Shown here piece after piece: positions 5,509-52,847 of a stretch of 64,000 bases of DNA; positions within the stretch are counted from its first letter, which is position 1, and each line of letters begins with the position of its first letter. Below the pieces are notes generated by a model. The model was not told where the DNA came from, did not search any database, and saw nothing but the letters and a program-made list of their open reading frames with translations. Position numbers and translations under genes: made by a program. This DNA comes from Geosiphon pyriformis uo1 (taxonomy: Eukaryota > Fungi > Glomeromycota): positions 1-64,000 of the forward strand of contig JAAOMT010000028.1 of the NCBI GenBank assembly GCA_016748015.1. Reading direction: 5' to 3'.

Positions 5509-5589
5509 ATTAACAAAAAAGGGTGTATTGAAAGAAATAACTTTAAGACAAAAAAGGGAAAAGGAAGAAAAAGAAGACTATTCTATTAA

Positions 5590-21570: not shown

Positions 21571-22421
21571 TGTTACTCATAGAATATAAGAAATATAGTA
21601 TTATTAATTAATAGAGATTAGCCAATCAGATGTAGACGTAGTAAATGTGAAATTCCAAGATTTCTCTTAGAGGAATTGCAGAATTCCAGGAATTTCAGGA
21701 TTCTCTAACAAAAAATCGCAGAATTCCAGAATTCCAAGATTCCTCTCATCAGGAATCACAGGATTCCAGGAATTCCAGGATTTCTGTCACAAGGAATTGA
21801 GGAATTGAGGAATCTCAAATAGGTATATATAGCAATAGCATTAGAAGCAGAAAAAAGAGGAGAAGAACATTAAGAAATTTTAGCTTAGTTATCACAATTC
21901 TCAAATAAATAATTATTCACTTTATCAAATTCATTCTTTACTATCAACATGAAGTGTTGATAGTAACTGATACTTAACCATACTGGAACAATAGCTCTTA
22001 ATCATGGCTATTGATGGGATACTAACTTGCAAATTGTCTTGGCTGATTTCTTATTTTCTTTTTTATCTTTCTTTATTTTCTTTGTTGTCTACTAACTTGA
22101 TTAAAGAATTTACTCTTGGAGGACTTATGGAGGAATAAACTTGCTTAAACAATACTTACTCTTGGAGGACTTACGGAGGAACTGACATCAGGAAACAGTA
22201 CTGGTATACACTTATGAAAAATATCATACCAGGAGAATCATCAACTCTCAAGCTGAACAAGCAATTGAGGAAACTACTGATAAACTGTTATCATTGAATC
22301 TCTGTCCATTATACAAAGAACTCAATTGAAAAACCTTCAGATTATCATTGTCACCAATCACTTTGTGCACCAAGTTATGGGTTTGTTACTTATTTGACAC
22401 CCCAAAGATTCATCTGTAACA
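21571..22421 (+). repeat. E1 5' LTR (851 bp)
   Basis: TGTTAC...GTAACA termini; CCAAT box ~21622, GGAATTCC-type tandem array, TATATATA ~21824. Confidence 0.95.
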
Positions 22422-22483
22422 TTTGGTGCTCCCTATAAGATATAATCTTACAGAGAACTAGCACCAACAAAAACAAACCAAAA

Positions 22484-25400
22484 GTGGCAAAATCAGAAAA
22501 TATAGGAGCAAATCATTTAGGATTCGCAAAATCCTTATTTCAACAATACAGCCAATAATTAGGATTAAACAGTAATCATTACCCAGCCAAATCAGCTTTT
22601 AACTTCTATGTCAACGACAAAATTACTGAATGCTTAGAAGAAACAGTTAACATTGAAGCAGCAAGAGAAAACTTTTACACAGAATTATTCCAACACACCA
22701 ACTTACCAAGAAACTATAGTTTCACACTAATAATCAGAGAAATCAACCAAACTATTGAAAGATACACTCAACAACAATTTTTTATCACCTACGCAGATAA
22801 AGGCAAAGAAAGGTTACAAATACTAGCAGTAATGCCTAAAAAGATACAACTACCAACCTGAAAGAAACAAAGAATTGAATTCCCACCATATTTATCATAT
22901 CATCACACACTTGGAAGCACTATCAATATTTCATCTGCAGGCATGTCCACACCAAACGCAACATCAACATTTGGACAATTCATATTCCAAAGTAAACAAA
23001 GAAAAACAGAGTTATTAGGACCATATGGAGAATATTTTGAGAGATTTAAATCACAATCACCAACGCCATTAGGAATTTGATCACCACTATCTCTACCAGA
23101 TTTTGGAATCTCTGATCCATGGGAGGTAATGGAATCAGAAAAAGAAGAAGAAGAAGAAACTGAGGATCAAAAATTCACTTACCAGAACCTGATCACTGAA
23201 AACCCGGAATTTGAAACCCCGAATCTTCAGAACCAGCAAAATTTAAATTTAGTAAATTCAGAAGTTGAAACTCTGAATATTCAGACACCACCAACTCAGG
23301 ATAATCAAAACCCCAATCTAATTAATCAACCAAACTTACCTCCAGTAATTATTATCAATCAATCACTAATTGATATAATAGCTGAACCCATACAGCAGCC
23401 ACTTCAACTGCCACCTTAACAAAATCAACAACTGCTTCAACAGCCACCACAACCACCCAACTTAGATCCAATGGCCTATGCACCAATCACAAAACTGGAT
23501 AATTTTACCAGCAAAGAAGACGACACTCAAGTATGGCTAAATGATGTGAAAAAAGCCATCATAGTCAACGGATGGAATGACACCCAAGCAATGTAAGCCA
23601 TTCCCTATTTTCTCAAAGATACTGCTGATTTATGGTATCAGAGCTTGATCAATAAACCACAAGACTTCAATGTCTTCAAAGTGGAATTTTTAAGATACTT
23701 CAGCAACAATAACAGTATCAACCGCCTAGTTAATATATTCACTACCATGAAGCAAGGAGAAACTGAAGCAATTACCACTTATCTGGGATGCTTTCATAGA
23801 AATCTGCACCAAATCCAGGCAATTAACGTCAACTATTTTACAGCACCACAGATCCTCAACCAGTTTATCCATGGCCTGCACAACAGCATCTTGCAACATG
23901 TATGCCTATTGCATCCAGGCACCCTTCAAGATGCAGTTACACATGCCAGAGATTTCGAATTAGTTGAGTCTGAGACCAACCATGCCCAAGCCATTAATCT
24001 AGTGATGAACAGATCATTTGAATTGGACTCCAAATTGAAACAATTTAGTGATTCAATTAATCAGAAATTAGAAGGATACTTAACTGACAATTGCACAATT
24101 TATCAACCACCTCAACAATACAGCAATTCAAGAAACTACAATTGTTCCCAAAATCAAGCACATCTCTTAATATTGGCCAATCAGCAGTGGCAGCCAGAGA
24201 CGCATGTCTGCCACAACTATAGTAAACAAGAGCACATCAGAGCAAACTACAATGCTTATAACCACTAGTGATCAGGAAATCAATATAGAAACTCCGATCG
24301 CCAATTTCAAACTTTGAGATATCAACAAAATCAGGAACAATATCAAAACACTTACCTGTCAATGACGCAGCAGCCAATTTACCAAGCACCAGTATATCAG
24401 ACTCCAGTTTATCAACCATAGCCACCAGCAATATATCAACTACAGCCACCCATAATATATCAACTGCAGCCACAAGTAATCTATCAACCCCAATCAATTC
24501 AGACACCACCCCAAAATTCAGTTAATACAACATCAGACCACCCCAGACTTAGAATCACACAAAACTGAAGATCAGCAATGGTTGTCCATCAACTGATCCC
24601 CAGTTCTTCCAACTCACCATCAGGATTGCATTTGTGGAATTCGGGTACTAGTGCCACCCAAAATCCGAATTCCCAGAACTATTTAAGTCTACTGATTACT
24701 CCAGAAGACACCACCACCAACAATTTAGAATCCAACCAACAACAAACACTTACCAACAACATTCCACCAGCAACTGTTACCAATGACAAATTGCTTGCAG
24801 CCATCTTTCTCTTCGACTTGAAAGAAATGATCAAAATTTTATTATTCAGTGGAGCAGCTCTGGAAAAGAAGCCAATTACCACCATGTATACAGATGCCAA
24901 AATTGATGGCCATGCCATCAAACTGATCTTGGATAGTGGATTAGCTGGCAGCATCATAACAAGACAACTCATGGATCAATTAGGTTGCTGAGTTGACCAA
25001 GCTGCCAGTGCAAGGATCATCACAGCTGATAGAGCAATCAAAACTCCAATAGGCAAAATAGACAACCTACCTATTGAAATTAACAGCATCATGGTACCCA
25101 TTAAAGTTCTTGTGATGGAAGCCACTCAGTATCAAGCTCTTGTTGGAAATGATTGGCTATCCAAAACAAACACCATACTCGATTGAACGATGCAAGAGCT
25201 CCAACTGAGCCAAAACAGTCAACATACTTAAGCACCAGCAGTATGCAGCCACTTTAAACCAACCAATTTGCAACCACTAATCAAACTTGAGGAGGAAACA
25301 AAGAAACCAACATAGGAAGCATATTAGGTTTCATGGGCCGACATCGACCACAATGAACTGCTGCCCATACTTGTCTGGGATGAAGATGACCATGGAAAAG

Positions 25401-28400
25401 GAAAGCAAAAAGAAGAACATACCTGAGAAACCACTATTGGCACTTGAATTAATGACAACCAAAACGAGTTGTCACCTACACTAAGTTGGGAAGAAAAAAG
25501 AAAGGGAAAGAAAAAAGAAAACAACCTACCAGAGAAAACTGAATTAACAAAAGACACCACCAGTGGCTGGACAAGTTTGTATTTCATTCATGAGCCACTG
25601 CCACAACCACCACACATACTGCTTAAATACAAAAATTGTGAGAAAAAACTCTCTTCTATGGAAGCTTGGGTCACACCAGACAAAAATTACTGGATGCAAA
25701 CCCACTATTATTACAAGTCTTGCCACTGCAAATGGTATGACTACCCAAAAAGACAAGACAAATGGGACAACAAACCATGTTTCGCTTGTGGTGAGCAATT
25801 GTTCGACAAAAGAATGTGGAACAACATTCCTGGTTGAAAAGAAACATACAACACTTTGTGCCAGTACACAATTCTCATCAGCAACTGGGTGAGTTGAGGT
25901 ATGCCAATAACTGCCACTTGGCACTAAGCAATCTCTCACCTGGACGGATACCCACATGACAAAGATGAGATCTGGCAGATGGCGAACGCCAAAATAGAAG
26001 ACACTATGTCCAGCAAAATCTTGGAAATCAAGAACAATTCTCCAAAACCAGTCAACATTATTCTAGTCCCCAACTCAGATGCTTTTTTCGATATTGAGAC
26101 CAACCCAGAAGACTTCTACAAACATTATCAAAATTTAGTACCAACCAGAGAGGAACAGAAAGAGTGGTTAGCACAACTAAACACTCGATTATGTGACTAC
26201 TGTTTGATCTCATGTGACTTTCAATATTGTAATGAGTGTGATCTCATTTACAATCCACCAATCCACATAATCTACACAATTCCAGAGGAAGAAAAACCAA
26301 TCAGCAGCTGCACATTAAAATCAGAACCACTGTTTGATCCCGATTTAAACTCTGACAATGACAATAATGAAAACACCAGTTCCAGTTTTGTTCAAAATAG
26401 TGATAACAATGACAATGATTCAAACTCAGATTCAAACTCCAATTTAAAATATGAACAATATATCACAATTCTTAATCTGACCAGAGAATTGAAACTAAAA
26501 TAGTTTAGTAATAATAACGAAGGTATCATGCCAGAATGTGCACACAATAATGATGCTGGATTTAATCTGAGGTATCCAAGAAAAGATGCCATCAAATTGA
26601 AACCACATTCATGTATCTGTCTTGATTTGAAAATAGCACTGGAAATTCTGACAACAACAATGGTTCAATTAGCATCTAGGAGTAGTTTAGCGAAAAGAGG
26701 GATTAATATAAAAAGAGGAATAATTGACATTGGATATGTAGGAAATATCATCGCTATGCTACAAAATGACTCAGAAAAGACCTATATAATAGAGCCCAAT
26801 AAAAAGATAGCACAGACAATATTCCTGCCTCTGGTTAGAGTAGCTCAGTTAGTATCAGTAGAAAAGAGAGAGGAATTAGGAATAACAGCAAGAGAAATAC
26901 AGGGATTCGGATTGACAGGTAAAGTAGATATACCAGTCAATATAGCAAATGAAGAAATTGTTGACCAAGGGGAAATTATCTCAATGGGTCAAACAATTTC
27001 TATTCCACCATATGACCAGTACATGATAGGAATAAAGTGGGAGGTAAAAGAACAGAATCAGATTTTTGAAGCAGAACCAACCCTCTGTAAATCAAGAGAG
27101 ATTGGACTCATCAATCTCCATATACCAGTCAAAGATTACAGTCACATCAAAATTCCCATCTACAATAATACAGGAAATATCATAGTAATATCAGCTGAAA
27201 CCACCATTGAATACTTAAGCACTGAAATAGAGGATCAACCACCAAGCACCATTCTGGACTTTCCACAGCTTTGTGGATATGTCAATATTATATCACAAAC
27301 AATATATGGACAAAGTAAATGTTATTTGCTCCAACCAGAACAATTGGAACAAATAAACATAAGAAACTTAGATCCACTCCAACGTATGCAACTTAAAATG
27401 TTGCTCAACAATTTCAATGACATCTTTGCCAGCGAAAACGAGTTTGGCCAAACTAACATCATCTAGCATCAGATCAAGACTGGAGATACAATGCCAATTA
27501 AACAAAGAGCATACAAAGTACCACCAGCTAGCCACAAGATTATCCATCAAGAGATAAACCAAATGCTTAATAATAGGCTAATTCAGCCATCAATGAGCCC
27601 ATGGTCATTACTAGTGGTACTCATCTGGAAAAAAAATGGGAAAATCCACTTTTGTGTGGATTATAGAAAACTCAATAGAGTAACTCATGGAGATAGTTAT
27701 CTCACTCCACAGATCCAAAAATTATTTGATGCTTTCGGTAGAAACAAATAGTTTTTAACATTAGACCTGGATAGTAGTTACTGGCAAGTAGCCATGAATT
27801 CAGCCAACAAAGAAAAGACGGCATTTACCACCAGAGAAGGGAATTTTGAATTTAAAGTAATGCCATTTGGCTTAACCAATGCACCAGCCACTTTTCAATG
27901 GCTAATAAAAATTGTTTATACTGGCTTATTATGGAAATCAGTAGTTGTATACTTGGACAACACCAATGTATTCTCAAAAACATTTGATGATCATCTTCAT
28001 CATTTTCAACAAGTGTTTGAAAGACTAAGAAGAGCAGGACTAAAGTTAAATGCAACAAAGTGTTTTTTCGGCAAGACAGAACTAAAATTCTTGGAACACA
28101 TAGTCAGCAAAGACAGCATCAAAATAGATCCAGAGAAAATAGAGATAGTAAAAAACTTTCCAGTACCAACCAATATGACAAAACTGAAATCATTCTTGGG
28201 ATTTGCCAGCTACTATTGATGTTTTATCAAGAACTTTTCCAAGATAGCACAGCCACTCAACCAACTGCAAACCAAGAATACAAAATATGAATGGACAGAA
28301 AGTCAACAAGAAGCTTTTGATATTCTGAAAAGAAAGCTCATTCAAGCTCCAGTACTGATCTATTCAGATCACAGCAAACCATTTATCATCACCACCGATG

Positions 28401-28753
28401 CATCCGGCCAAGCACTAGAAGCAGTACTATCTCAGAGAGGACCAAATGGCAGAGAATATTCAGTAGCATATGCCAGCAGAGGTTTAACACCAGCCAAAAA
28501 GAACTATAGAACACTGAAACAAGAACACTTAGTAATATACTGGGCAGTCATGAAATAGAAAAAATACTTGAGCCAGAAGTTTGAAGTATACACAGATCAC
28601 AAAGGATTAACATCACTTCAAAAACAAGAATTTGGAGATGGAAGACAGTCAAGATAGAAAATGGTACTCACACCATATAATTATACTATACATTATAAAA
28701 AGGAAAAAGACAATGGAAATGCTGATGGTTTGTCATGAATGAGACAAATATAA
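22484..28753 (+). pseudogene. E1 ORF1 polyprotein: Gag-PR-Cys-rich-dUTPase-RT-RNaseH (~2090 codons, one frame, point-mutation stops)
   Basis: ORF-track fragments 23129, 23645, 24578, 25469, 25979, 26528, 27491 and 27794 share one frame. Motifs: LILDSG, dUTPase motifs, CVDYRKLN, MPFGLTNAPATF, YLDN, TDAS, ADGLS. Confidence 0.93.
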
Positions 28754-28815
28754 GAACATTTCAACCCAAAAATATAACAAAACCAAAACATTACCAACAA
28801 TAAATATAACAAAAG

Positions 28816-30198
28816 ATAAACATACAAAGATATTAACAACTGCAACATTATATAAACACTCAACAATTTAAGAAGAATTTATCTCAAATGGAACGAAAGA
28901 GTATCAAACAACAATCAAAATATTTTATCACTCACCAAAATATACTTTATTGAAAAAATAGAAGAGATCTAAAGCAACCAACCAGAGTAATTACAGAGCC
29001 AAAAAAAGAAACAATATTATTCAACATGCACTCAAATCCAACAGCAGGACATTTTCACAAAGAAGCAACCATGGAAAGAACCAAAAAGAGATACTATTGG
29101 CCATCAATGTACCCAGACATCATTCAATATGTTCAAAATTGTAATGCTTGTCAGCGAAAAGGAGGAACAAAACCCAGTGAACTATTAAGACTAATCAAAG
29201 TGAGACAACCATTTGACTATATTGGAATTGATTTAGTCGGACTATTAACAATCACCAGCAGAGGAAACAGGTACATAGCAGTAACTATGAACTATCTCAT
29301 TAAATGGCCAGAGGCAAAAACAATTCAAAGAACGGATGCAAAATCCGTTGCCAAATTCATTTATCAAGATTTAATTTGTCGACATAGATGTCCAAAGAAA
29401 TTATTATCAGACCAAGGAACTCATTTTGTGAACAGAACATTAACAGAATTGAGCCAAAGATTCGGAATTAAGAGACCACTATCATCACCATACCATTCAC
29501 AAACCAATGGATTAGTCAAAAGATTCAACAGAATATTGTGTAAAGCAATAGCTAAGCTCAGCCAAGAAAACCAGAACAATTGGGATTTGTTGATACCATC
29601 AGTACTATTTGCTTATCAGACAATGAAGCAAGATACTACACAAACAACACCATTTGAATTAGTATATAGTAGAACAGCAACACTACTAGTGGAAATGAAA
29701 GTCAGCACATACTCAACTGAACCAATAACAGAAGAGAATTTCAAAAACACATTGTTGAGAAGAACATATGACTTAATGAAAACATTAGAAAACAAACAAC
29801 AAAAAGCAGCTGATAACATACAAAAGTCACAAAAGAAACAAAAAGAAAGACATAATAACCAACTATCAGATAAACCAGTTGAATTCAAGATTGAAAACAA
29901 AGTACTACTACATCGTACCAAAGCGAAAAAACAATGGAATGGAAAATTTGACCTCAAATGAGATGAACCATTTTATATAGAAAAAATTCTAGGAAATGGA
30001 GCTTACAAATTAAGATTAAATAACAAAATCTTGACCAAAGCAGCACATAGAAATTGACTGAAATCATATTACCATATAGTATCATCATCCACTAGTAATA
30101 TTCTACAATTAGGAGTACAGAGAATACTAGTCCAACCAGATGAGATTCCACAAGATCTGGAACCAATCATTATTATTAACAACAACACGTCCAATTAA
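28816..30198 (+). pseudogene. E1 ORF2 integrase (HHCC, DDE core, C-terminal GPY/F-like region)
   Basis: MHSNPTAGHF...CNAC; IGIDLVG; LLSDQGTHF; QTNGLV. The start has decayed to ATA (ATG in E3). Confidence 0.92.
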
Positions 30199-30221
30199 TT
30201 AACAAAAGAATATATAAGAAC

Positions 30222-30881
30222 ATGGTCAATGTGACAAAAAAGATCAGAAAAATGGAAATTACAGACAATATCTATTCACTAGTCCAACAAATTTTTCAAT
30301 TAATCCAACACCAAGAGATGGAAATTACAATCAATTAACAAACCATTCATTACAAAAATACAGCAAAGATACCACAAAACAAAGCATAGAAAAGACTTGG
30401 AAATGTTGTTGACAAGATCATAACCAAGATAAAATTGGCCATAAAAAAACAACCAATAGTCAGATTACACCAAAAACTTACCAGAGAAACTTGGACTTGG
30501 TGAATGCAACAATTTCCAAAAAACTATTGTCATTTCCACTTGGAACAACACGTAAATATCCAGAATTTGTACACTGACAAAACAAAATGGTTATTTGACA
30601 CAACAATACTGAGACAACTGAAACAATTTATGGGAAAAAACAATCTAACCAGACAAGCTCGAGCTATTTACCGGCTATATATGGAATTTCAAGACTGATC
30701 AGAAATCTTACTCAACACAGCAATGAATACAGTTACGAGTAATCAATTAGAAAAAATGACCAACACCCAATTTGAAGAACTACAAACTGAAATAACACAA
30801 GTAATACTCGAAAAAGAAGTTCAAGAAATAATTCAAGAAGGGGAATTAAAGAAATTAGATTTCGATGGAGCTCAATATTAA
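30222..30881 (+). pseudogene. E1 ORF3, unknown 220-codon protein
   Basis: ATG to TAA of 660 nt with internal transition stops; homologous to E3 52175-52834 and E2 34179-34898. Confidence 0.8.
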
Positions 30882-30894
30882 AAGGAGGGAATAA

Positions 30895-31768
30895 TATTAC
30901 TCATAGAATATAGAAAATATAGTATTATTAGTCAGTAGAAATTAGCCAATCAGATATAAACATGATAAATGTGGAATTCCAAGATTCCTTTCAGAGGAAT
31001 TGCAGGATTCCAAGAATTTCAGGATTCTCTAACAAGGAATTGCAGGATTCCAGAATTCCACTCATCAAGAATCACAAGATTCCAGGAATTCCAGGATTCC
31101 TGTCACAAGGAATTAAGGAATTGAGAAATCTCAAATAGGTATATATAGCAGTAGCATTAAAAGCAAGAAAAAAAGAAGAAGGACATTAAGAAATCTTAGC
31201 TTAGTTACCACAATTCTCAAATAAATAATTATTTATTCTATCAAATTCATTCTTTACTATCAACATAAAGTGTTGATAGTAACTGATACTTAACTATACT
31301 GGAACAATAGCTCTTGATCATAGCTATTGACAGGATACTAACTTGCAAATTGCCTTGGCTGATTTCTTATTTTCTTTTTTATCTTTTTTTATTTTCTTTG
31401 TTGTCTACTAACTTGATTAAAAAATTTACTCTTGGAGGACTTATGGAAGAATAAACTTGCTTAAACAATACTTACTTTTAGAGGACTTATGGAGGAACTG
31501 ACATCAAGAAACAGCACTGGTATACACTTATAGAGGATATCATACTAGAAGAATCATCAACCCTCAAGCTGAGCAAGCAATTGAGGAAACTACGGTTTCA
31601 GGAAACTACTAATAAACTGTTACCATTGAATCTCTGTCCATTATACAAAGAACTCAATTGGAAAACTTTCAGATAAAATACCTTCAGATTATTATTGTTA
31701 CCAATCGCTTTGTGCACCAAGTTACAGGTTTGTTACTCACTCGACATCCCAAAAACTCACCTGTAGCA
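30895..31768 (+). repeat. E1 3' LTR (874 bp)
   Basis: Direct repeat of 21571-22421; termini decayed to TATTAC...GTAGCA. Confidence 0.95.
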
Positions 31769-33230: not shown

Positions 33231-34210
33231 TGTTACCAAAGGTTTTTGGTCTCTTCTTAGCTCTTGTATGTTTGTTGTAATGTTGTTAATTTACGATTAT
33301 GGGAAGTGTTTGAACCTCTGATAACTGAATTTATCTTCAAATTATCTCTTATAATTTGAACTGCTGGACTTATAAGTGGAATGGCCAATTCCGTGCCAGT
33401 TACTTTGTATAGTTATGTTGTAGTAAATGTCAACTCTTTCTTGGAAATTGCTCATCTAAAAGCTCACTAAAAATGTGTAGTTACTTTGCTGTGAAAGTCA
33501 ACTCTTTTACAGGAATCTCGTTTATAGGCTACCCTAATAATTGTAATAAGAAAAGAAAAAAAAAATAAAAAAAATGTAAAAGAAATAGGATTTTATCAAA
33601 GAAAACGTTTTCTATTCAGGCCTGGAGTTACTAACAGTTTACTGAAATTAGTAGCTAATCAATTTCAAAATGTTAATTGGGTTTTGAAGATTTTTCTAGT
33701 GCAATAATTTCAAGAATTTGGTTTTTCGAATTATTTAATATTTATTTCTTTTTGTGTGTGTAGGAATGGTTTTAAGTGATAAATCCAAAGTAAGATACAT
33801 TTTCTCGAAAAGAGAAGCTTTTCTTTTATACAACTTGTTATAACACTATTCTATGCACTTGAACTTTGCTCTTTTCTACAATTTTGCTGAACTAAAGATA
33901 CATTTTGGTGAATTACAAGTTATTTCTGTGAACTATTAGATGTTTCGGTAAACTATCAATTATTTCAGCAAATTTCTACAAATTTCGGTGAACTTTTGAA
34001 TGTTACATATTTCGGAGTATTGCATAATTGATCATCACACTTAGGTTACATTTATGTTATATACAAATTGGGTTATTAGTTAAATGATAATTTCAGACAT
34101 TTTGCTAATGTAATAAGTAATAATTTGAAACAATAATATATGCTAATTAATGATAAGATTTATAAGGGTAATTTTATGCTAAACAATATCTCTAATTTTG
34201 TCTGATAACA
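33231..34210 (-). repeat. E2 3' LTR (980 bp)
   Basis: Direct repeat of 42076-43056; TG...CA termini. Confidence 0.95.
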
Positions 34211-34898
34211 TAATCTTTTTCTCAAGACTGAGCTCTGTTGAAGTCCAAGTACTGTCTGTGATTTTCAGATAATAATCCAAAATTATTGAAGAAATTTGGT
34301 CTGAAAATTGTTGAAATTTCAGTTTTGTGAGCTTTTCAATATATTGAATCTTCAAAAGTTGTAATATTGGGTTTTGTAAGACATTTTCACAGATGTGAAA
34401 TAGGTCATAAAGTCTAAGAGCAGCTCTTAATTTATAATGACTGTTTGTAGATCCAGCTGTTGTCTTAAATTTGTTATGGAGTTGTTTCCGAATAGCTTTT
34501 TTTGTAAGGTTTGCTGCTGTAAGCTTCCGTTTTTGTTTGTGAAGTGTTTTTCCAATGTAGAAATATCTATATATTGGAATATAGTCGTAATTTTTTTCAT
34601 TAAGACACAGTTGAAGTTTTTGTTGAATAGTAGCATTCAGTGGAATACTAATAGGAGTGAGCATTAAGTTTTCTTTTAAAGCAAGCTTTAGAAGTTCTGA
34701 CAGGTGAATTCCAGAATAACTTCTTGTGTTCTTCTTATATGGATGATATTTTTGTGCATTTGGGGCTAAATTTGTAACTACTTCTGTTTGAGTATAATTA
34801 ATGTGGTTTCTAGTAACAGTAATAGATAATTCGGGTATTGTTTTTAAAGCTAACATTAGTTTTTGGGATAATTGTTGAATGTTTTGAGGAATAGTCAT
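34179..34898 (-). CDS. E2 ORF3, unknown 239-aa protein, uninterrupted, reading into the 3' LTR
   Basis: Open ORF in the track; aligns by eye with E1/E3 ORF3 (NIQQLSQKL~NIYSLVQQI; YRYFYIGK~YCHFHLEQ; RAALRLYDLF~RAIYRLYMEF; IEKLTKLKFQQF~LEKMTNTQFEEL). Confidence 0.75.
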   Translation of the reverse strand: MTIPQNIQQLSQKLMLALKTIPELSITVTRNHINYTQTEVVTNLAPNAQKYHPYKKNTRSYSGIHLSELLKLALKENLMLTPISIPLNATIQQKLQLCLNEKNYDYIPIYRYFYIGKTLHKQKRKLTAANLTKKAIRKQLHNKFKTTAGSTNSHYKLRAALRLYDLFHICENVLQNPILQLLKIQYIEKLTKLKFQQFSDQISSIILDYYLKITDSTWTSTELSLEKKIMLSDKIRDIV

Positions 34899-35017
34899 TA
34901 TAAGGGATTTGAAAATAAAAGAAAATTATTTTTGGTGTATGGGTTTTTATGTTATTTTTGTTTTGTATTTGTGATATTGTTTCTAAATTATAAGGAGATA
35001 ACTATAATAAATTTAAG

Positions 35018-36403
35018 TTAAGTGTTCAAATTGGGAGGTTGTTCAATAACAACTATTGGTTCTAAATTTTGGAAAATATCTTTGGGATTAATTAAAGGGG
35101 AATGTGTACCAATTTGTGGAATTAATGGTTCAGGATTGTGTCTGGAATTATAGTGTTTCAAACAATCTCCATGTGCAACTTTTGCTAGGATTTTGTCATC
35201 AAGTCTTAGCTTGTATGATCCATTGCCTAGGACTTCATGGATAAAGAATGATCCATCCCATTTATTTTCAAATTTCTTACTCCATTGTTTTTCAGCTTTA
35301 GTTCTGTGTAAGAGAACTTTGTTTCCAATTTTAAATCTATTGGTAACTGGAGGCAATTTGTTGTCATGCCGTTCTTTTTGTTGAGCTTGAGAGTGTTCAA
35401 TATAGGTGGCTGCTATTTGTTGTTTTCTTTCCAACATGCTAAGCAGAGTGTAGGCTCTTCATTGAAGTGTTTCCTGGAAATTGTTTTTATCAATTGGTTG
35501 TGCTGGGTATGTTTCTACTGTGAAACTAATTGGTAATGTTGCTGTCCTTCCATAAGTTAAATCAAATGGTGTGTGTTTTGTGGTATCTTGTTTTAGTGTT
35601 TTGTATATTAGTAACACTGATGGAATAAAGATATCCCATTTTTGCTCAAAATCGGTTGAGACTTTGGCTAATAATTCACACAATGTTCTGTTAAAACATT
35701 CTACAAGTCCATTTGTTTGTGAATGATAGGATGAAGATAATGGTCTTTTGACATTAAATTGTCCACAAATTTCTTGGATTAAATTGTTCACAAAATGTGT
35801 TCCTTGATCAGATAAAAGTTCTATTAGGCATCCATGTCTATAAATGATGTCTTCGTAAATAAAGTTTGCTACTGATTTTGCATCTGCTCATTGAATGGCT
35901 CTGGCTTTAGGCCATTTGGTGAGATAGTCTACAGCTACTGCAATATAATGGTTTCCTTGGTTTGTGATAAAAAGTGTTCCAACTAAATTGATACCAACTT
36001 GGTCAAAAGACTGTCCAACTTTGATTGGGTTTAAAGGTTCTGTAGGGCAAGTTCTTTCTTTTTTTTAACAACTATCACAAGACTTAATGTATTTATGAAT
36101 GTCTTTTTTTATTTGAGGCCAAAAATAATATTCTAGTGTTCTCTGGTTGGTGCTGTTTTTTTCTAGGTGTGCTGATGAAGGGTCTGAGTGCATGTTATAT
36201 AAAATGATTTCTTTTTCATGTTCTTGTATTAATCTGAGCGGACTGTCTGGGTTTCTGAAGTTTTGATAATAAATAATGTTGTTGTGTAAGAAGTATTGTT
36301 TGACTTGTTGTTATAATCAGTGTTTTTCATCTGAAAACCAATCTGTTGGGATTGTTAATGTCTCCAGATATTGTTTAAGATTGTTGTAGTTTTTGGGGTT
36401 CAT
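35018..36403 (-). pseudogene. E2 ORF2 integrase
   Basis: Starts MNPKNYNNLKQYLE; MHSDPSSAHL, VGINLVG, LLSDQGTHF, QTNGLVE, KWDGSFFIHEVLGNGSYKL. Confidence 0.92.
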
Positions 36404-36449
36404 TGTTTGTTGTTTTGTTGTTAATTCAAATGGGTGTTGTTTTTATGTT

Positions 36450-39400
36450 TTAATCTTGCTTCATTCTTGAGAGACAATCAACGTTGATGTGGAGTTTTCC
36501 TGGTTTGTGGTGTACAATATATTAGTAGTTGGCTAAAAATCCTGTTCATTGGGTTTGTTTTGCATTCAGTTAGATGTTTTTGTTCTGAAGCCATTTGAGT
36601 CCAATATTATCAGTGATAATATCAAATTTTTTAGGCCTGAGATAAAGGTTAAAGTAGTGTAGGGCCCAAATTATGGCTGCTGTTTCTAGTTCTGTGGCAG
36701 GGTAGTTTTTCTCGGCTGGTTTTAATGTTCTGCTCACATAAGCAATTACTCACTCATTTCCATTGTCGCCTAATTGTGATAAAATGGCACCAAAGGCAGT
36801 GTAAGAAGCATCTGTAGCTAGTCGAAATCGGTTACTGAAATCTGGATAGGCAAAAATTGGAGCTGTTGTTAGTTTTTTTTTGAGAATTTCAAAAGCTTTT
36901 TGGTGTTCTTCTGTCCATTTGTATTCGACATTTTTAGTAGTAAGCTGATTGAGGGGTTTTGCAATTTCTGAGAATCCTTTGATAAATTTTTGGTAATAAG
37001 AAGCTAATCCAATAAATTTTCTCAATTCTGTGGTATTTCATGGAGTCTTGAAGTTCTTGACAGTGCTGATTTTTCTGGGGTCTGGTTTAATTCCATCTTT
37101 GCTTACAATGTGGCCAAGAAAGACCAGACTTGTTTTTCCGAAGTAGCATTTTTTGATGTTTAGTTTCAATCTTGCTTTCCATAATTGTTGAAAAACTTCG
37201 CACAAGTGTTTTAAGTGTAATTCAAAAGATGGTGAATAGACATTAGTATTATTGAGATAGACAACTACTGATTTCCAAAGGAGGCCTTTGTAAACAATGT
37301 CCATGAGTTTTTGGAATGTTGCTGGTGTATTGCATAATCCAAAAGACATTATGTTGAACTTGTAGTTTCCTTTTTGTGTGGTGAATGCTGTTTTGGAGTG
37401 ATCTTTGGGATCCATGGCAACTTGCCAGTATCCGCTTTCTAAATCTAATGTTGAAAAGTATTTGGATTTTCCAAGAACATCTAACATGTCATCGATTCGG
37501 TGAAGAGGGTAGGCATTTCCAATGGTGACATTGTTGAGTTGTCGATAATCAACACAAAATCATATTTTTCTATTTTTCTTCTTAACTAGGACTACAAGTA
37601 AGGTCCATGGACTCATTGATGATTGAATAAGCCCATTGTTAAGCATCCATTATACTTCTTCTCAGATAAATTGGTGACTTTCTGGAGCAACTCAGTAGGC
37701 TTGTTGTTGTCTTGGTTTGGCATCTCCTGTATAGATTTGGTGTTGAACCAAATCAGTTCTTCCTAAGTCATTGTTGTTTTCAGCAAAGATATCGGCAAAT
37801 TCTGCAATTAGCTCTTTAAACTGGCTCTTCTGTTGTGGTTCAAGTTGTTTTATGTTGATTCGAGATAGTTTTTCTATAACAACATGGTAGTTTTTAGAGC
37901 TGGGCTTTGGGTTGATTTTTGGTAGTAAATGTCCAATAATTTCAGAGAAATTGGGGACTGTTTGGAGTAATTCTTGTTGAAAGATATTACTGTGAATAAC
38001 TCCAATTTCTAAGTTATTTAATAAAACTACAGAAAAATTGTTGGAATTGTAAAAAGTAACTTGGATTTTCTTTGTTCCTTCTGGAATATAAATGTTTGGG
38101 ATTGAGATATTATGTTCTAAGCAGACTTGTTTATTGGATTCAAAAATTTGTTGTGTGATTGTTGACTTTGGGCAGGTGTAGATTTCCAGATGTTCACTAA
38201 AGAGTAAAATAGTAATTGGTTGTGCAAGTCGTAGAATCTGGTGAGATTCATTTTGTTCATTAAGAGTTATGTTTACTGGAACTGTGAATCATCCAGTTGA
38301 ACCAAAACCTTGGGTTCCTCTTTCACTTTTTCCCAATAGTTCTCTTTGATTGACTAATTGTAAACCCAAAATGTTAATTAAGGGTAAATAAATAGCTTGG
38401 ACAATTTTTTTGGCATGTTCAATTTTAAATGGCTTGTCAGTTTCATTTTGGAGTATTATTGTTATGTCACCAGTATATCCTGCATCAATTATTCCTCCTC
38501 TAACATTGATTCCTTTGCTTGCCAGAGAGAACTGGAAGGCAATTTGAATTATTGCTTCTGGTGAGATTTTGAGAGCAATTTTGAGGTTAATTTTTGTGAG
38601 AGATTTGGGTTTAAAAATAAGAATATCCTTGTCTGGATATCTTAGGTCATATCCAGCATCAATTTCATGTACTTTTTCGGGTTTTATTCCTTGTCCATTG
38701 TTGTTGAAGTATTTGAGTTGTAAGGCAGGCTGATTTTCAATGAGATAGATGAGTGTTGTTTCAATTTCTTCTATTGCTTCAGGTTTTCCAAATTCAATTT
38801 CATATTCGTCATTTTTGCTGAGTAATGGAATGCTAAGGGCATAGCATTCAGGACACCATTGTTTGTTGCATGGCATTATACACTCCTCACATAATTTAAT
38901 GTTCATTTGCTCTAATCATTGAATTTGAGCTTCTTGAATTGAGTAGGTGTGACTTGCAATTTGGTGGTATACTTTGACTTCATCTTCATAATCGAATCCA
39001 GTTAATTCCAATGTATATTCAATATATTTGGCTTCCTTCATTTGAAGGACATCTTCTTTGGTTTCTCCATTAATTAAAACCATGGCAAGTTTGTAGATCA
39101 TTTCGGCATCATGGGAGTAGTAATAAAGTTTGCTAAGAGTGCTGTTATATGCGGCATTGAAAGGTGTTCCACATTTTACTTTTTCTGCAATAGAAAAAGC
39201 ATATTGGCAAGTTTGATCACAGACTCCTCCTCTAAATGCAACATCAATCCAGTCACATTCATCAGGAAGCTGCTTTCCACAAGTAAGACAGGGTGTTCTA
39301 TCCCATTTTCTGCTTCTTTTGATCAAGTGGTCTCATTGTTCTTGATGGCAGGCCTTGTAGTAGTAGCAGGTATGACTTTCATATTCTTCTTTAGGTGAAA

Positions 39401-42030
39401 TACAAGCTTTCATTGACAATAGTTTCTTGTGGCAGTCCTTACATTTAAGGAGAATGTAGGGGTGTTGTTTCCTTGGTTCAGGCTTTGAGTAAGGGATATT
39501 CCATTCAGGAGTTTCAGGTTCAGAATGTGAAGTAAAATGTTTTTGTTCAGTTTCCTCAGCCCAATTGGACATTAATCCAAGAGCCATGAATGTTTTGATT
39601 ATTGGTTTTTCTTCTTCTGGTTCGAATTCAAAAGCTGGGGCTTTTTCGGAGTGTTTGTTGAATGTATCACAAATGGCAGGTACTCGGGCGTGTTGTTTTT
39701 GGTAGGGAATTGTTAACTCTTGTGTCTCCCAATTCAGATTAGCATTGGCTTTTTGGAGCCAATTGTTTTTGACAAGAGCTTGGTATTGGGGAGCATCCAT
39801 GACCAGAACTTTGACTGGAATGGTAATTCCATCAATTGTGAATGAGAAGTTGTCAATCTCTCTTACTGGAGTCTTTTTCATGCCATCAGTAGTGACAATG
39901 ATTGTCTGAGCTGGTTGGTCAACATTTCTCTTTAGCTGCTGCATCAATTGATATGTAATGATGCTTCCAGCAGATCCACTGTCTAGGATCAAGTGAATTG
40001 GCTTTCCTTCTACTTTAGCTTCTGTGTACATTGCAGTAATGGCTTTTTGCTCATTAGCCGCTGCATTGCTAAGCAAAAATGGTAATTCATTTGCTTCAAA
40101 TTTGAAAGGAAATATATCTGAAAGATTGGCTTTTTCAGCAATTCTGGCTGGTGGGATTGTGGTAGAAATATAGGAAGGGTTTTGTTGTTGTGTTGCAGCT
40201 CTACTTTCTGAGAATGCAGTATGGTGAAAATCCTGTTCTTTAGGTATTATAAGATAGCTAGGTTGAGTATGATAATGGGTGGATCTTGGCTGAACTGGAT
40301 TTCAGAGAATCAATTGGTTGTTCGAATTGATTCTATTGTTGTTTACTTGGTATTGGTTTTGTGATGTAAATTGATTTTGCGGAATCAATCTTTGAGCAGG
40401 TATTTGATAATGTTGTGTGAGTGGTTGTTGGTATTGCTGTTGAATTGGCTGTGGAGCGGGCTGATAATAGTTATTTTGGTATTGGGATCTTGGTAGATAG
40501 TAAGCTGGTAGTGGTAGTTAATAATAAGATTGCTGTGGTAGAGGGTAACGTTAATTACTCTTATTTTGTTGGTCTCATTGTAGCTTTCTGCAATCTTTTT
40601 TCCAGTGGCCAGGAATTTTACAGTAATGGCAAATCTGAGACTGGTTATTAGAAGATGATATAAAGTTGTTTTGATTCTGTTTTTGGGGTGGTTGATATCT
40701 TTGGGGTTGCTGTTGTTGTTGGTTAGTGAAATAGTTTTTGACTTTCTTTGCAAGTTGGTCAATTTTTTCTTCAGCTGCTGAGCTGGTTTCTCCAATGGTT
40801 AAGTTCACAAGTTTTGTACAATTGACTTCTTCTATGGCCATTTCATATCTTTTTGCATGCTGAATAGCAGAGTTTAAATCTTCTGGCACATGTGAACGAA
40901 CCTTTTTAATCAGTTTATCTTTTAAGCCAGTGATAAATTAATCCAAGATTTGAGCATCAGAATAATAATCAGTAGTTTCAAGTTGGCGAATTTGTTTGAG
41001 AAGTTTGTTAAATTTCTCAATATAAGTCATGACAGATTCAGAGGGTTCTTGTTTGATATTGTGAAAACAATTCTAAGAAGGCAGTTTTGAAAGCTGTCCA
41101 GTCATTAAAAGGAGTGATCAAGTTTTCAAACCATTTGCCTGCGGTTCCTTTAAGAAAGTAGGGAATTGTTCTTAACATTCAGGCAGCATTCCATCCATTT
41201 GCATCTCCAGCTTTAGTAACTTGGTTGAGCCATTCTTGAGGACTGGTCTTAATGTTTTCTTCATTGAATTCAGGGATTTTTGCAATGTATGCTGTCATTT
41301 CATCTTCTTCATTTTTACTGTCTATTTATTCTTTTTCAGATATTTCAGAGTCATTTTCTTCGTTCACTGCTGTCTCAGAGTGTTCACTTTGATTTTTAGC
41401 TAGAAAGTCAAGGAGATTAGAACTAGTTTGAAGAAGTTTTTGTTGTCTGATGGGACTTCTGGATAATGTAAAATCTTCTAGTCTTGTAAATCGATTTAAG
41501 GGTGAATTAGGTGTTTGTGCTTGTGCAAGTGAAGCTGGAAAAGATGTGATAGTAAGTGGAAGTTTTGAACTAGTTCCTTGTTCAGGTGTTTGTAAGTGTT
41601 TGGCAGTTGTTTTTGGTAGTATTGGAGTATTTGGGGTGGTTTTTGAGTATTGCTTCAATTTTTGTTTGCCTTTGTTGCTTGTTTCTGTCTCTGATTCAAA
41701 ATTAAAAGAGTATTTAGACTGTACTGGGTATTTTTCTTCACAATATTCAATAATGTTAAAATTAAGTTCTTGAAAGTAGGTAGCAAGTGTTTTACTGTTC
41801 AGGTTTTCTGTTTTCAATTGTGAATAGTGCACTAAATTATTGTAGAGGTTGCTTCTAACTTCTGAAATGTTTTAGTTTCCAAAAAGATAATTGTTGATGT
41901 GGTTTTCAATGTATTGGTATACTGATTTTTTGACAACTTCAATTCCGTCTGGAATGTTGAATCTTTGCTTGTAGTGTGTGTAAATTGACTGGTAATACTC
42001 TAAAGTTACTGTGTTTGGTGTGGTCGCCAC
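36450..42030 (-). pseudogene. E2 ORF1 polyprotein Gag-PR-Cys-rich-dUTPase-RT-RNaseH
   Basis: CHYCKIPGHWKKDC knuckle, LILDSGSAGS, DAGYDL/GGIIDAGYTGDI/RGTQGFGSTG, LDLESGYWQV, ATDAS. One frame from ~40889 to 36450, with small indels in gag. Confidence 0.93.
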
Positions 42031-42075
42031 TTTGAATTTGTTGTTGCTGTGTTATTTCTGTGGGAGAGCACCAAA

Positions 42076-43056
42076 TGTTACTGAAGGTTTTTGGTCTCTT
42101 CTTAGCTTTTGTATGTTTGTTGTAATGTTGTTAATTCACGATTATAGGAAGTGTTTAAACCTCCGATAACTGAATTTATTTTCAAATTATCTCCTATAAT
42201 TTGAACTACTGGACTTATAAGTGGAATGGCCAATTCTGTACCAGTTACTTTGTATAGTTACATTGTAGTAAACGTCAACTCTTTCCCAGAAATTGCTCAT
42301 CTGAAAGCTCACTAAAAATGTGTAGTTACTTTGCTGTGAAAGTCAACTCTTCTACAGGAATCTTGTCTGTAGACTACCCTAATGATTGTAATAAGAAAAG
42401 AAAAGAAAAATAAAAAAAATGTAAAAGAAATAGGATTTTATCAAGGAAAACGTTTTCTATTCAGGCCTGGAGTCACTAACAATTTACTGAAATTGGTAGC
42501 CAATCAATTTCAAAACGTTAGTTGGGTTTTGAAGATTTTTCAAGTGCAATAATTTCAAGAATTTGGTTTTTCAAATTATTTAATATTTATTTCTTTTTGT
42601 GTGTGTAGAAATGGTTCTAAGTGATAAATCCAAAGTAAGATACATTTTCTCGAAGAGAAAAGCTCTTCTTTTATACAACTTGTCATAACACTATTCTATG
42701 TACTTGAACTTTGCTCTTTTCTACAATTTTGCTGAACTAAAGATACATTTCGGTGAACTACAAGTTATTTCTGTGAACTATTAGATGTTTCAGTAAACTA
42801 TCAATTATTTTGGCAAATTTTTACAAATTTCGGCGAACTTTTAATTGTTACATATTTCGGGGTATTGCATGATTGATCATCGCACTTAGGTTATATTTAT
42901 GTTATGTAAAAATTGAGTTATTAGTTAAATGATAATTTCAGATATTTTGCTAATGTAATAAGTGATGATTTAAAATGATAATATATGCTAATTAATGATA
43001 AAGATTTATAAGGGTAATTTCATGCTAAACAATATCTCTAATTTTGTCTGGTAACA
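42076..43056 (-). repeat. E2 5' LTR (981 bp)
   Basis: Repeated AGTTCACCGAAA-like units and TATAAAA on the minus strand; followed by the PBS. Confidence 0.95.
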
Positions 43057-43546: not shown

Positions 43547-44436
43547 TGTTACTCATAGAAATATAAAAAATATATTAGCATAATTATTAGCCAATCAGAA
43601 GGAAGCGTAGTAAATGTGAAATTCCAGAATTCCTCTCAAAAATTGCAGAATTCCAGGAATTTCAGAATTTCCAACAAGGAATTGCAGAATTGCAGAATTC
43701 TAGGATTCCTCTCAAAGGAATCGCAGGATTCCAGGAATTTTAGGATTCCTGTTGTGAAGAATCAAAGAATTAAGGAATCTCAATTATGTATATATAGCAG
43801 TAGTGTTAGAAACAGAAAAGACAGAATCGATACCACAGAATCCTTAACCTAGAAACACAATCATCAAATAAATAATTATTTCATATCTCAAATCCACTTC
43901 CCACTATCAACTCTTTATGTTAATAGTAATTGATACTTAACCATGCTGGAACAATAGCTCTTGATCACAGCTATTGATGGGATACTAATCTGCAAATTGC
44001 CTTGGCTTATTTCTTTGCTTTCTTTATTTTTCTTTTATTTCTTTTTTCTTTATTTTATTTTGATTTGTTGTTATATATACTAATTGATAAAAGATTAAGC
44101 ACTGAGTTATTGATGTCAAGGATAGCCTGGTAAAAGACCCAGAAATACAGGTAGAATTTTATATATTATCGGATAGCTTACCAGAAGGGCATGACTGCCA
44201 GAATAAATCTGGCCACCAAGCTAAGAAAAAAATTAGACATAATTGCGACTCCAGGAAAACTACTACCATCACCACTGAATCTCTGTCTATTATACAAAGA
44301 ACTCCACAACAAAACCTTCAGATCAACCAAAACTTCAGATACAGCATCTTCAGAACAGCCTCAATGGAAGTAGCTTTTGAGCACCAAGTTATGGGTTTGT
44401 TATTTAATTCAACAGTAAAAATAATCACCTGTAACA
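43547..44436 (+). repeat. E3 5' LTR (890 bp)
   Basis: TGTTAC...GTAACA termini; CCAAT box, GGAATTCC array, TATA. Confidence 0.95.
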
Positions 44437-44498
44437 TTTGGTGCTTTCTGTGAAGTATAATCCTACAGAGAACCAGCACCGACAATACCAAACCAAAA

Positions 44499-47400
44499 GT
44501 GGCAGAATCAGAAATTATAGGAGCAAACTATTTAGGATTCGCAAAATCCTTATTTCAACACTATTGTCAATACTTGAGATTAAACCACAATCATATATCC
44601 ACTGAATCAGCCTTCAATTTCTACGTCAACAAAAAGATTTCTTCTTTATTAGGAACACCAGTGAACACTGAATCAGCAAGAGAAACTTTCTATAAGGAAT
44701 TAATTCAAAACACCAACCTACCAACAAACCATAATTTTGCATCTATCATCACTGAGATCAACAAAGAAATTGAACACCACACTCAACAAAGATATCCAAT
44801 TACATATGCTAGTAAAGGCAAGGGAAAATTACAAACACCAGTAGTAACACCCAGAAAAATACAGCCACCTGCTTGAAAGAAAAACAGAGTTGAATCTCCA
44901 AGCAACTCATCCTACCACTATACACCTGGAAGCGCCATCAACATATCATCAACCAACATGTTTTCATCAACTGTGACATCAACATTTGGACGATTCCCAT
45001 TCCAAAGTAGACAAAAGAAAACAGAATTGCTAGGACCATATGGTGAATACTTTAAGGGATTTAATTCACGATCATCAATCTCATTAGGACTTCGATCATC
45101 ACCGCCTCCACCAGATTTTGGAATCTCTGATCTGTGGGAAACAGCAGAATCAGAAAAAGAAAAAAAATCAGAGGATCAAGAATTTACTTACCAAAACCCG
45201 ATCATTGAAAGCCCGGAAGTTGAAACCCCAGAAGTTGAAATCCCAAATCTTCAAGCTTAACAAAATTTAAATATAGAAAATTTGGAAATCAAAACTCAGA
45301 ATCAGCAAAGACAGAACAATCCAAAACCCAAATTAATTAATCAGTAAAACTTATCTCCAATAATTGTCATCGATCAACTGCCAATTAATCTAGTAGCCAA
45401 ACCTATACAATAGCCACTTCAACTACCACCCCAACAACTACTTCAACAGTCACCACAACCACCTAACTTAGACCCAATGGCCTATGCACCCATCACAAAA
45501 CTCGACAACTTTACTGGTGAAAAAGATGATGCTTAAGTATGACTGAATGATGTAGAAAAGGCCATCGCAGCCAATGGATGGAATGACGCCCGAGCCATAC
45601 AAGCCATTCCCTACTTTCTTAAGGATACCGCTAATTCATGGTATCAGAGCTTGGTTAATAAACCACAAGATTTCAATGTCTTTAAAGTGGAATTCCTAAG
45701 ATACTTCAGCAACAACAATAGCATTAATCACCTAGTCAATACATTCACCACCATGAAACAAGGAGAAACTGAAACAGTCACCACTTACCTGGGACACTTC
45801 CATCGAAACTTGCGCCAAATTCAAACAATTGATGATGACTATTTTACAGCACCACAGATACTCAACCAGTTTATCCGTGGCCTATGCAGCAGTATCTTGC
45901 AACATGTACATCCATTGCATCCTAGCACGCTTTAAGACACAGTCACACACGCCAGAGATTTTGAATCTGCTGAGTCAGAGGCTAACTATGCCCAAGCCGT
46001 TAATCTAGTAATAAACGGATTATCTGAATTGGATTCCAAATTGGAGAAGTTCAGTGAATCAATTAATAAGAGATTGGAAGGATACTTAGCTAACAATTAC
46101 ACCATTTATCAGCCTTTACAATGATGTAATAATCAAGGAAATTATAATCATGGCCAAAATCAACCGCATCCATCTTCATCAACCAATTAACAGTGACAAC
46201 AGGAAATGTGTATCTGCCACTATTGTGGTAAACAAGGACATATCCAAATTGACTGTCGCCAGCGTTTAAATAACCAACAATTGGGAAATCCATATTGAAG
46301 CCCCGATCGCCAGTTCCAAACTCCAAATCAGTACCCAAATCAAAACCCACCCGCTTACCTACCAGTGACACAGTCATCAGTTTATCAGTCTTCAGTATAT
46401 CAACCTCCGATTTATCAGCCGCAGCCACAAGTAATATATCAACCACAGCCACAAATAATTTATCAACCTCAACAGATCCAAACACCACCCCAAAACTTAC
46501 CACCCAACAGAACCCAAAGACCAAGAATAACTCAACAGAGCTGGAGATCAGCAATGGTAGCTTATCAACCAATCCCCAGTTCTTCACAGCAACCATCTGG
46601 ATTACGCCAGCGGAATTTGGGTACCAGTCAACCCCAGAACCCGAATTCCCAGAACTATTTAAGTCTCCTGGTCACCCCAGAAGACGCTTCAACCAATAAC
46701 CCAGCATTTACCCAAAAACAACCATTCACCAGTAATATCCCACCTGCTACTATTACCGAAGACAAGTCATTGGCCGCTATCTTCCTATTTGAATTTGAGG
46801 AAACAGCTGCAACGCCATTGTTTAGTGGAGCCGCTCTTAAAGCCAAACCAATTACTGCGATGTACACTGATGCCAAAGTTGAAGGACAATCCATTAAATT
46901 GATCCTGGACAGCAGTTCTGCAGGCAGCATAATCACAAGACAAATCATGGATCAATTAGATCATCAAGTTGATCGAGCTGCCAGTGCCAGAATCATCACA
47001 GCCGATAGAGTGACCAAAACTCCAATCGGCGAAATCGACAACTTTCCTTTTGAAGTCAATGGCATCATAACTCCCATTAAAGTGCTAGTGATGGAAGCCA
47101 CTCAATACTAAGCTCTTGTTGGTAATGACTGGCTATCTAAAGTCAATGCAACGTTAAACTGGAACACCCAGAAACTCCAGCTAACGTATCAGGGCCAACA
47201 CATACATGTCCCGGCAATGTGTGGCCATTTCAAAACTCCTCCAAGAAAGAAACTATTGATTGAACTGGAGGAGGAGAAAGAAAAGCCAACCTGAGAAGCC
47301 TACCAAGTGTTGTGGGCGGATGAAGAGCACAATGAACTACTGCTCATATTCTTCTGGGACAACAGCAACAAGGGAAAAAAGAAACAAAAGGAAGAACTTA

Positions 47401-50400: not shown

Positions 50401-50703
50401 AAGAACATCCAGTAGCATATGTCAGCAGAGATTTAACACCAGCTGAAAAGAACTATGGAACACTGGAACAAGAACACTTAGCAATATACTGGGCTGTCAT
50501 GAAATGAAAAGAATACTTGAGCCAAAAGTTTGAAGTATACACAGATCACAAGAGATTAACATCACTCCAAAAACAAGAATTTGGAGATGGAAGACAGTCA
50601 AGATGGAAAATGGCACTTGCACCATACAATTATACTATACATTACAAAAAGGGAAAAAACAATGGAAATGCTGACAGTTTTATCACGAATAAGACAAATC
50701 TAA
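44499..50703 (+). pseudogene. E3 ORF1 polyprotein Gag-PR-Cys-rich-dUTPase-RT-RNaseH
   Basis: Fragments 44499, 44958, 45651, 46365, 47307, 48129, 49440, 49902 and 50517 share one frame; CHYCGKQGHIQIDC knuckle; all five dUTPase motifs; one extra T near 50680. Confidence 0.93.
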
Positions 50704-50766
50704 GAACATTTCAACCCAAAAATATAATAAAACCAGAACAATACCAACAGAAAAATACAACAAAAG

Positions 50767-52150: not shown

Positions 52151-52174
52151 TCCATCAAAAAAATATATAAAGAC

Positions 52175-52834: not shown

Positions 52835-52847
52835 AAAAAGAGAATAA

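Follow-up and report, generated by a model that had tools for sequence, protein, structure and literature searches.

The integrase (IN) of a lineage of Ty3/Gypsy-type LTR retrotransposons is encoded outside Pol, in a stand-alone frame behind the RNase H (RH) stop codon. We found this layout in three decayed elements of a 64,000-nucleotide stretch of Geosiphon pyriformis DNA (hereafter, the window) and confirmed it across the lineage. In Ty3/Gypsy elements and retroviruses, IN is made inside Pol, which also carries IN into the particle. The present lineage (67 families) lacks the Pol-IN link and must handle the dose and delivery of IN differently. Translation of IN very probably begins at its own ATG. 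Restart after termination of the upstream protein is the best reading of how the ribosome arrives there, at about an even chance of being correct.

Elements in the window

Three full-length but decayed LTR retrotransposons, E1, E2, and E3, lie inside the window (Table 1). Their LTR pairs have the form TG..CA. In all three elements, the 5' LTR is directly followed by a PBS-like TGGTGCT; E1 and E3 also have a purine tract ahead of the 3' LTR. Target duplications flank E1 (ATGG at 21567-21570/31769-31772) and E2 (ATGC at 43060-43057/33230-33227). In E3, the 3' flank is ATGT and the 5' flank is different. An ATG-based target preference is possible. The Pfam domains matched (Retrotrans_gag, Ty3_capsid, Asp_protease_2, RVT_1, RT_RNaseH, Integrase_H2C2, and rve) follow the Gypsy order of Gag, protease (PR), dUTPase, reverse transcriptase (RT), RH, and IN. 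The dUTPase is located between PR and RT at 26504-27466, 38289-38915, and 48027-49331; two relatives (P0491 and P0509) carry a Nudix domain (PF00293) in Pol in its place. The first ORF seemingly starts within the 5' LTR (43900-44450 and 22100-22420), by which coding sequence is repeated in both LTRs.

The window also holds decayed LINE-like copies at 6-5577 (minus strand), 17782-21525, 31775-33222, 43065-43382, and 53928-54632. The copy at 6-5577 has endonuclease and RT matches at 698-3661, and related pieces flank the LTR elements. A host gene with calponin-homology domains, which we take to be fimbrin-like, occupies 59851-61411 on the plus strand.

Table 1. Features of the three elements in the window
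Feature	Position	Strand	Remarks
E1, decayed Ty3/Gypsy element	21571..31768	+	LTRs 21571-22421 and 30895-31768; 4-bp target duplication ATGG
E1 Gag-protease-dUTPase-RT-RNase H region, decayed	22400..28753	+	start approximate; ends with TAA 28751-28753
E1 spacer, 62 nt	28754..28815	+	37 A/13 C/10 T/2 G; lacks ATG and GT; unfolded by prediction
E1 integrase frame	28816..30198	+	460 codons; 4 internal stops; ATA at the relatives' ATG column
E1 downstream ORF in ORF4 position, decayed	30222..30881	+	marginal ORF4 profile match (E 0.056)
E2, divergent decayed element	33231..43056	-	LTRs 43056-42076 and 34210-33231; 4-bp target duplication ATGC
E2 Gag-protease-dUTPase-RT-RNase H region	36450..42200	-	start approximate; ends with TAA 36452-36450
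E2 spacer, 46 nt	36404..36449	-	28 A/11 C/6 T/1 G; lacks ATG, AG, and GT; unfolded by prediction
E2 integrase frame, from ATG 36403	35018..36403	-	461 codons; 5 internal stops
E2 ORF4, open frame	34179..34898	-	helical family found 3' of IN in relatives (E 3e-8)
E3, decayed, of the E1 family	43547..53738	+	LTRs 43547-44436 and 52848-53738; flanks mismatch as target duplication
E3 Gag-protease-dUTPase-RT-RNase H region	44454..50703	+	start approximate; largely in a single frame; ends with aligned TAA 50701-50703
E3 spacer, 63 nt	50704..50766	+	38 A/13 C/8 T/4 G; lacks ATG and GT; has more in-frame stops; unfolded by prediction
E3 integrase from ATG 50767, decayed	50767..52150	+	one frame shift near 52020
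E3 downstream ORF in ORF4 position, decayed	52175..52834	+	E1-like by eye; profile match not significant (E 0.17)

The first-pass annotation had described an RH stop, a short A/C-rich spacer, and a fresh start in frame with an HHCC-DDE integrase in all three elements. Each part of this description was borne out. The start positions are 28816-28818 (ATA, E1), 50767-50769 (ATG, E3), and 36403-36401 (ATG, E2, minus strand). The spacers of E1, E3, and E2 fall in phases 2, 0, and 1, respectively, and Integrase_H2C2 and rve domains were found in frame after the starts. All three spacers are rich in A and C, poor in G, and fold to 0 kcal/mol.

In E1, a TGA (28736-28738) upstream of the common stop takes the place of an Arg codon found in relatives. 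In E3, the frame shifts by one base within the ADxLSR codons near 50678-50681. Both are decay. LTR pairs are 90.7% and 93.8% identical, and transitions account for 78/78 and 54/55 of the differences. Because the copies are heavily decayed, the window by itself could not exclude decay as the source of the stop and spacer. The E3 junction (121 nt) was compared with 872 contigs from the one DNA run listed as containing the element; no RNA run was listed. No alternative letter was found at the TAA or the ATG at a 3% threshold; this check is supportive only, the contigs being short and differences near contig ends unlisted. Gene models of G. pyriformis match the E1 integrase over short stretches with up to 78% identity.

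Conservation of the split layout in relatives

The IN search yielded 61 proteins, 46 of which were aligned; the 15 weaker matches left out were mostly Geosiphon gene-model fragments. A Met start occupies the column of the E2 ATG in 32 of the 46 homologues, the other 14 start further downstream, and none extends back into RH. Since this search was restricted to proteins of similar length, the DNA of 80 metagenome loci was examined. ATG is present at IN column 1 in 69 loci; six loci are cut by contig ends and five have shifted or damaged starts. Many of the loci have long unbroken frames. The RH end and the IN ATG are both readable in 51 loci, and none of these junctions is fused. All three phases occur among them (21/16/14). 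Spacers range from -20 to +943 nt, the longest resulting mostly from early stops within a long RH tail. The 80 loci, E1, and E2 make up 67 families at 80% IN identity, with a median identity of 45%.

The loci had been chosen by an IN-only alignment; hence, a second search was carried out from RT-RH for longer proteins. Of the 120 matches listed, 79 were kept at an identity of at least 56% and a cover of at least 93%; the 41 left out were mostly animal and other Gypsy proteins. IN is missing from 74 of the 79 closest RT relatives, one of which is cut short before the RH end. Among these 74, 59 end within 30 residues past RH and 15 have a longer non-IN tail. The five relatives with IN are three Rhizophagus clarus gene models, which skip the ADxLSR motif, and two ordinary fusions, P0073 and P0513. 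The IN tree does not place P0073 within the split group. A search for longer IN relatives turned up four AM fungal models, P0065, P0066, P0068, and P0069, with RH-IN joins that resemble predicted introns. It also turned up P0067, a truly continuous RT-RH-IN protein with a tail that is ORF4-like by eye.

In the IN tree, a single group (SH-aLRT 89, not starred) unites all split families with the AM models and P0067. P0067 is nested with split elements (support 100), which suggests re-fusion; judged from its protein sequence, re-fusion is likely. The split is not absolute, as P0067 is continuous and inside the lineage. In the RT tree, the split group is weak (39/90), and E1, E2, and E3 join L049, L053, L061, and L077 (support 99/96), whose spacers are 19, -11, -4, and -4 nt. 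Monophyly of the split lineage is moderately supported. The lineage likely belongs to Glomeromycotina fungi. No relatives were found in the viral contigs searched. IN-only proteins that share this start but are more divergent came from a 50% representative search, one of them from Lichtheimia ornata; these, known from protein alone, may be Ginger-like transposases.

Two further features of the relatives were noted. Pol runs 236-344 residues beyond RH in L017, L028, L032, L038, L055, and L057, which is typical of the subgroup with the RNA motif described below; no Pfam match to this tail was obtained in the four scanned. A His/Cys-rich domain with an F..FW.W pattern is N-terminal to Gag (ORF1) in L001, L017, L028, L041, L049, L055, L057, and L062, with no Pfam match where scanned.

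Decay and recoding as alternatives

Two readings would keep IN within Pol. Copy-specific decay of a continuous frame would suit window copies full of stops and transitions. It has practically no probability left, for the layout is kept in intact relatives at a median IN identity of 45%, and the TAA and ATG are kept in contigs of the same organism. A continuous RH-IN frame in young copies, which the first-pass annotation had named as the outcome that would overturn it, was seen in none of the 51 junctions, and IN is missing from 74 of the 79 closest RT relatives. The other reading, that IN is still joined to Pol by frameshift, read-through, or splicing, was assessed in 43 junctions, comprising 40 families with spacers of at most 200 nt and the three window copies. 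Extra stops block a single recoding event in 25 of the 43, including E1, E2, and E3, in line with the earlier argument against conserved read-through or frameshift. A single step is feasible on paper in the other 18, but a slippery heptamer is present in only one of the 15 frameshift-feasible junctions. Seven of the 43 junctions, none of them in the window, would allow an in-frame GT-AG intron 3' of the catalytic Asp codon. NCBI gene models of AM fungi do link RH to IN, but they achieve the join by skipping the ADxLSR motif of RH. The lineage does use recoding-type signals between gag and pol; however, an invariant Met would be needless in a fused product. Fusion by recoding or splicing is thus already largely refuted, and we consider it very improbable. 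The AM fungal gene models invent introns over the RH-IN junction, and intact elements may be miscalled broken.

At the gag/pol joins, an in-frame TGA followed by CTA was seen between protease and RT in a read-through-like context (L008:2882, L009:870, and L041:3290), and slippery-like runs were seen at frame changes in L049, L061, L011, L006, and L043. We take these to be signals of the read-through-like and slippery-like types, respectively.

Start codon of IN and its surroundings

Residue 2 of IN is D, E, or N in 56/56 families, compared with 25% of 313 internal Met. A purine occupies position -3 in 47/56 families, compared with 196/313 internal Met. Met-Asp/Glu/Asn is the NatB acetylation signature. 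Initiation at the IN ATG is accordingly held to be very probable. The first-pass claim that IN is made independently stands as far as initiation is concerned, which the start context supports well; the routes it offered (reinitiation, internal entry, or subgenomic RNA) are inferred only.

The spacing of stop and start was determined in 42 families. They overlap or lie at most 2 nt apart in 12 families, are 19-100 nt apart in 23, and are further apart in seven. ATGA and TAATG joins occur among the 12 close-join families, to which none of the three window copies belongs. Spacers contain 10 ATGs, compared with 18.2 expected from dinucleotide shuffles, and 24/28 spacers have no ATG. Out-of-frame ATGs 5' of the stop are not depleted in any of five bins up to 300 nt; the counts are 20 in the last 30 nt before the stop (19.5 expected) and eight in the overlap class (6.9 expected). 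Reading from the stop onward, the first ATG encountered is that of IN in 26/30. Folding in the 288 nt before the stop showed no excess over synonymous shuffles (mean z -0.41 to +0.28), in a test blind to pseudoknots.

A covarying RNA motif before the IN ATG

One subgroup has a compact RNA motif made up of a 6-bp stem that carries the loop CANNGYGA, a one-sided bulge of 11 nt, and a 4-bp outer stem (for example, L016:293-334 and L028:4462-4503, plus 22 other loci). A pattern search of 83 sequences on both strands gave 22 matches, every one 4-36 nt 5' of the IN ATG. A motif model trained on 20 copies matched 24 loci, all before the IN ATG, 20 of them being training sequences. The model had no match in the window and the motif is absent from 56/80 loci. 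Pairing was observed in 95.5% of cells, with double changes in 8/10 pairs. None of 500 shuffles scored as high, although relatedness inflates this test, and slid controls were far lower. Single copies are not unusually stable against shuffles (z -0.11 to -0.58). A search of 20 loci against Rfam gave no match at the gathering score, two 131-nt stretches gave chance-level matches only (E 3.2 and 8), and no motif match was found in viral contigs. On the IN tree, the motif-bearing loci fall into two places, with L020/L080 apart from the rest. Its location before the IN ATG suggests a role in initiation or as a processed 5' end.

Routes to the IN start codon

The ATG-poor zone begins at the stop, matching scanning from there, and stop and start overlap in close RT relatives; hence, restart after termination is the best reading, with an evenly balanced probability. 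Having finished the upstream protein, ribosomes would take the first ATG that lies close to or beyond the RH stop and restart there, giving free IN at a dose presumably lower than that of Gag. In the motif-bearing subgroup, the motif likely helps or replaces restart. Several observations weigh against restart. Ribosomes that have translated a long ORF usually restart poorly unless tethered. The spacers are at least 19 nt in 30/42 families, longer than viral tight stop-start joins, and the folding test showed no excess structure 5' of the stop, where victoriviruses need a pseudoknot. Pol of some relatives already needs a frameshift or read-through, so IN would be very scarce. GTA is depleted in the spacers as strongly as ATG (7, compared with 15.3 expected), and P0067 is fused. 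The RNA motif sits 3' of the stop and an extra ATG is present in 2/6 motif spacers, for which internal entry fits better.

Internal ribosome entry, in which the ribosome is recruited immediately 5' of the IN ATG with no need for Pol to be translated, would uncouple the IN dose from frameshift rates. The agents would be the unstructured A/C- or U-rich spacer, such as the unfolded spacers of the window, and, in one subgroup, the covarying stem motif, which consistently adjoins the IN ATG. This route is unlikely: the motif is missing from the window and most loci, its single copies are no stabler than shuffles, and 12/42 families have no spacer and keep ATGs close upstream. A subgenomic IN mRNA is doubtful. 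It would arise from an internal promoter, by cleavage, or where a nuclease stalls, and would begin within the spacer or shortly 5' of it. The ATG-poor spacers and good -3 context would suit ordinary scanning on such an RNA, the motif could mark its processed 5' end, and several spacers are T-rich (up to 53%). T-rich stretches resemble fungal promoter tracts. Extra ORFs of LTR elements are, in the available part of one report, typically separate transcription units (PMC5408684). However, where the spacer is only -20 to +2 nt, a non-coding promoter has no room, the leader in the overlap class would cross coding sequence of normal ATG density, and L008 has an ATG with A at -3 only 7 nt upstream of the IN ATG. 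Different subgroups may use different routes. For restart and internal initiation in fungi, the dozens of natural bicistronic junction variants and the compact covarying motif offer a test bed.

ORF4 and delivery of IN

Among the 46 sequences whose DNA extends far enough, 30 have a separate ORF 3' of IN that encodes a helical protein (ORF4); the gap or overlap between the two varies. Its predicted structure is a confident helical model (pLDDT 94.6). ORF4 had no Pfam match of note and no Foldseek match at E 0.001; its best VIA Z score was 4.8, and its neighbours in the Atlas have low shared counts and are hypothetical proteins. In L024 and L055, ORF4 follows the IN stop directly and in frame; in P0067, it seems to be fused to IN. 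These arrangements are a hint, drawn from sequence, that ORF4 may work with IN. At least 1 kb with antisense coiled-coil-like ORFs was seen between IN and ORF4 or the LTR in some loci (L052:7089-7550, L057:2780-3361, and L040).

Free IN would be recruited non-covalently to the particle or the cDNA. The first-pass annotation took packaging by another way to be necessary, but IN might also act on the cDNA unpackaged. A tentative overall picture is that of a polycistronic Gypsy element (Gag-Pol, IN, and ORF4), whose free IN would never be in a polyprotein and would be delivered non-covalently, possibly via ORF4, and in one subgroup of which an undescribed RNA fold would start IN. At its limit, this picture would make the layout an unfused, Ginger-like state and not a later split.

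Comparison with known systems

The elements share with Ty3/Gypsy (Metaviridae) LTRs, candidate PBS- and PPT-like sites, a Ty3_capsid Gag, the PR-RT-RH-IN order, and an HHCC-DDE integrase, and among PDB sequences they match Ty3 Gag-Pol best (7q5b, E 3e-52). According to the ICTV, pol of Metaviridae holds PR, RT, RH, and IN, which are translated as polyproteins (PMC7879559). In contrast, IN is here an ORF of its own and is followed by a further non-Env ORF. With IN outside pol (no fusion in 51 junctions; 74/79 RT relatives without IN), the lineage is a Gypsy-derived variant and not a canonical member. A survey of fungal LTR elements also places IN in pol, in the part available (PMC3248453). Gypsy elements with a dUTPase, known from fungi, bdelloid rotifers, and planarians, likewise have it between PR and RT but keep IN in pol, as far as the accessible text of the reports goes (PMC6431247; PMC5408684).

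No description of a separate Gypsy IN ORF was found in the literature searched, with Repbase and subscription journals outside the search, and the stand-alone IN in Ty3/Gypsy is apparently undescribed there. None was found in the available portions of 10.1101/2021.03.30.436303, PMC11952901, PMC2774666, PMC6431247, PMC10224137, PMC6875170, PMC5408684, PMC13468544, and PMC5911963. Gypsy-1-I_RO, named in the available portion of PMC2836005, could be a lineage member described in Repbase.

A downstream replication enzyme made as a separate protein is also known from victoriviruses, CHV1, and caliciviruses, and AUGA/UAAUG joins are shared by part of the lineage. In victoriviruses (HvV190S) and CHV1, AUGA/UAAUG restart operates at 4-20% efficiency with an upstream pseudoknot, according to the part of the source available (PMC6631646). 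These viral systems differ in having tight joins and an upstream pseudoknot or tether, as described in the same excerpt (PMC6631646), whereas the lineage has mostly spacers and no structure was detected before the stop.

Free Ginger integrases, and a fusion idea for the origin of LTR elements, were described by Bao et al. (2010) in the accessible part of that paper (PMC2836005). Judged against that text, the lineage resembles Ginger1 and YPYY-type Gypsy integrases in its free-standing Gypsy-like IN of ~400 aa, which is extended ahead of the zinc finger, in TGT termini, and in a 4-bp target duplication (PMC2836005). Ginger differs, in what is described there, in having inverted repeats and no Gag or RT, whereas the present elements have full Gag-RT, with direct LTRs and RT-RH 5' of IN in the window and 51 loci. 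Kinship with Ginger is a lead only, the trees being without a Ginger reference. The split layout bears on the proposed origin of LTR elements, in which an RT element was united with a DNA transposase.
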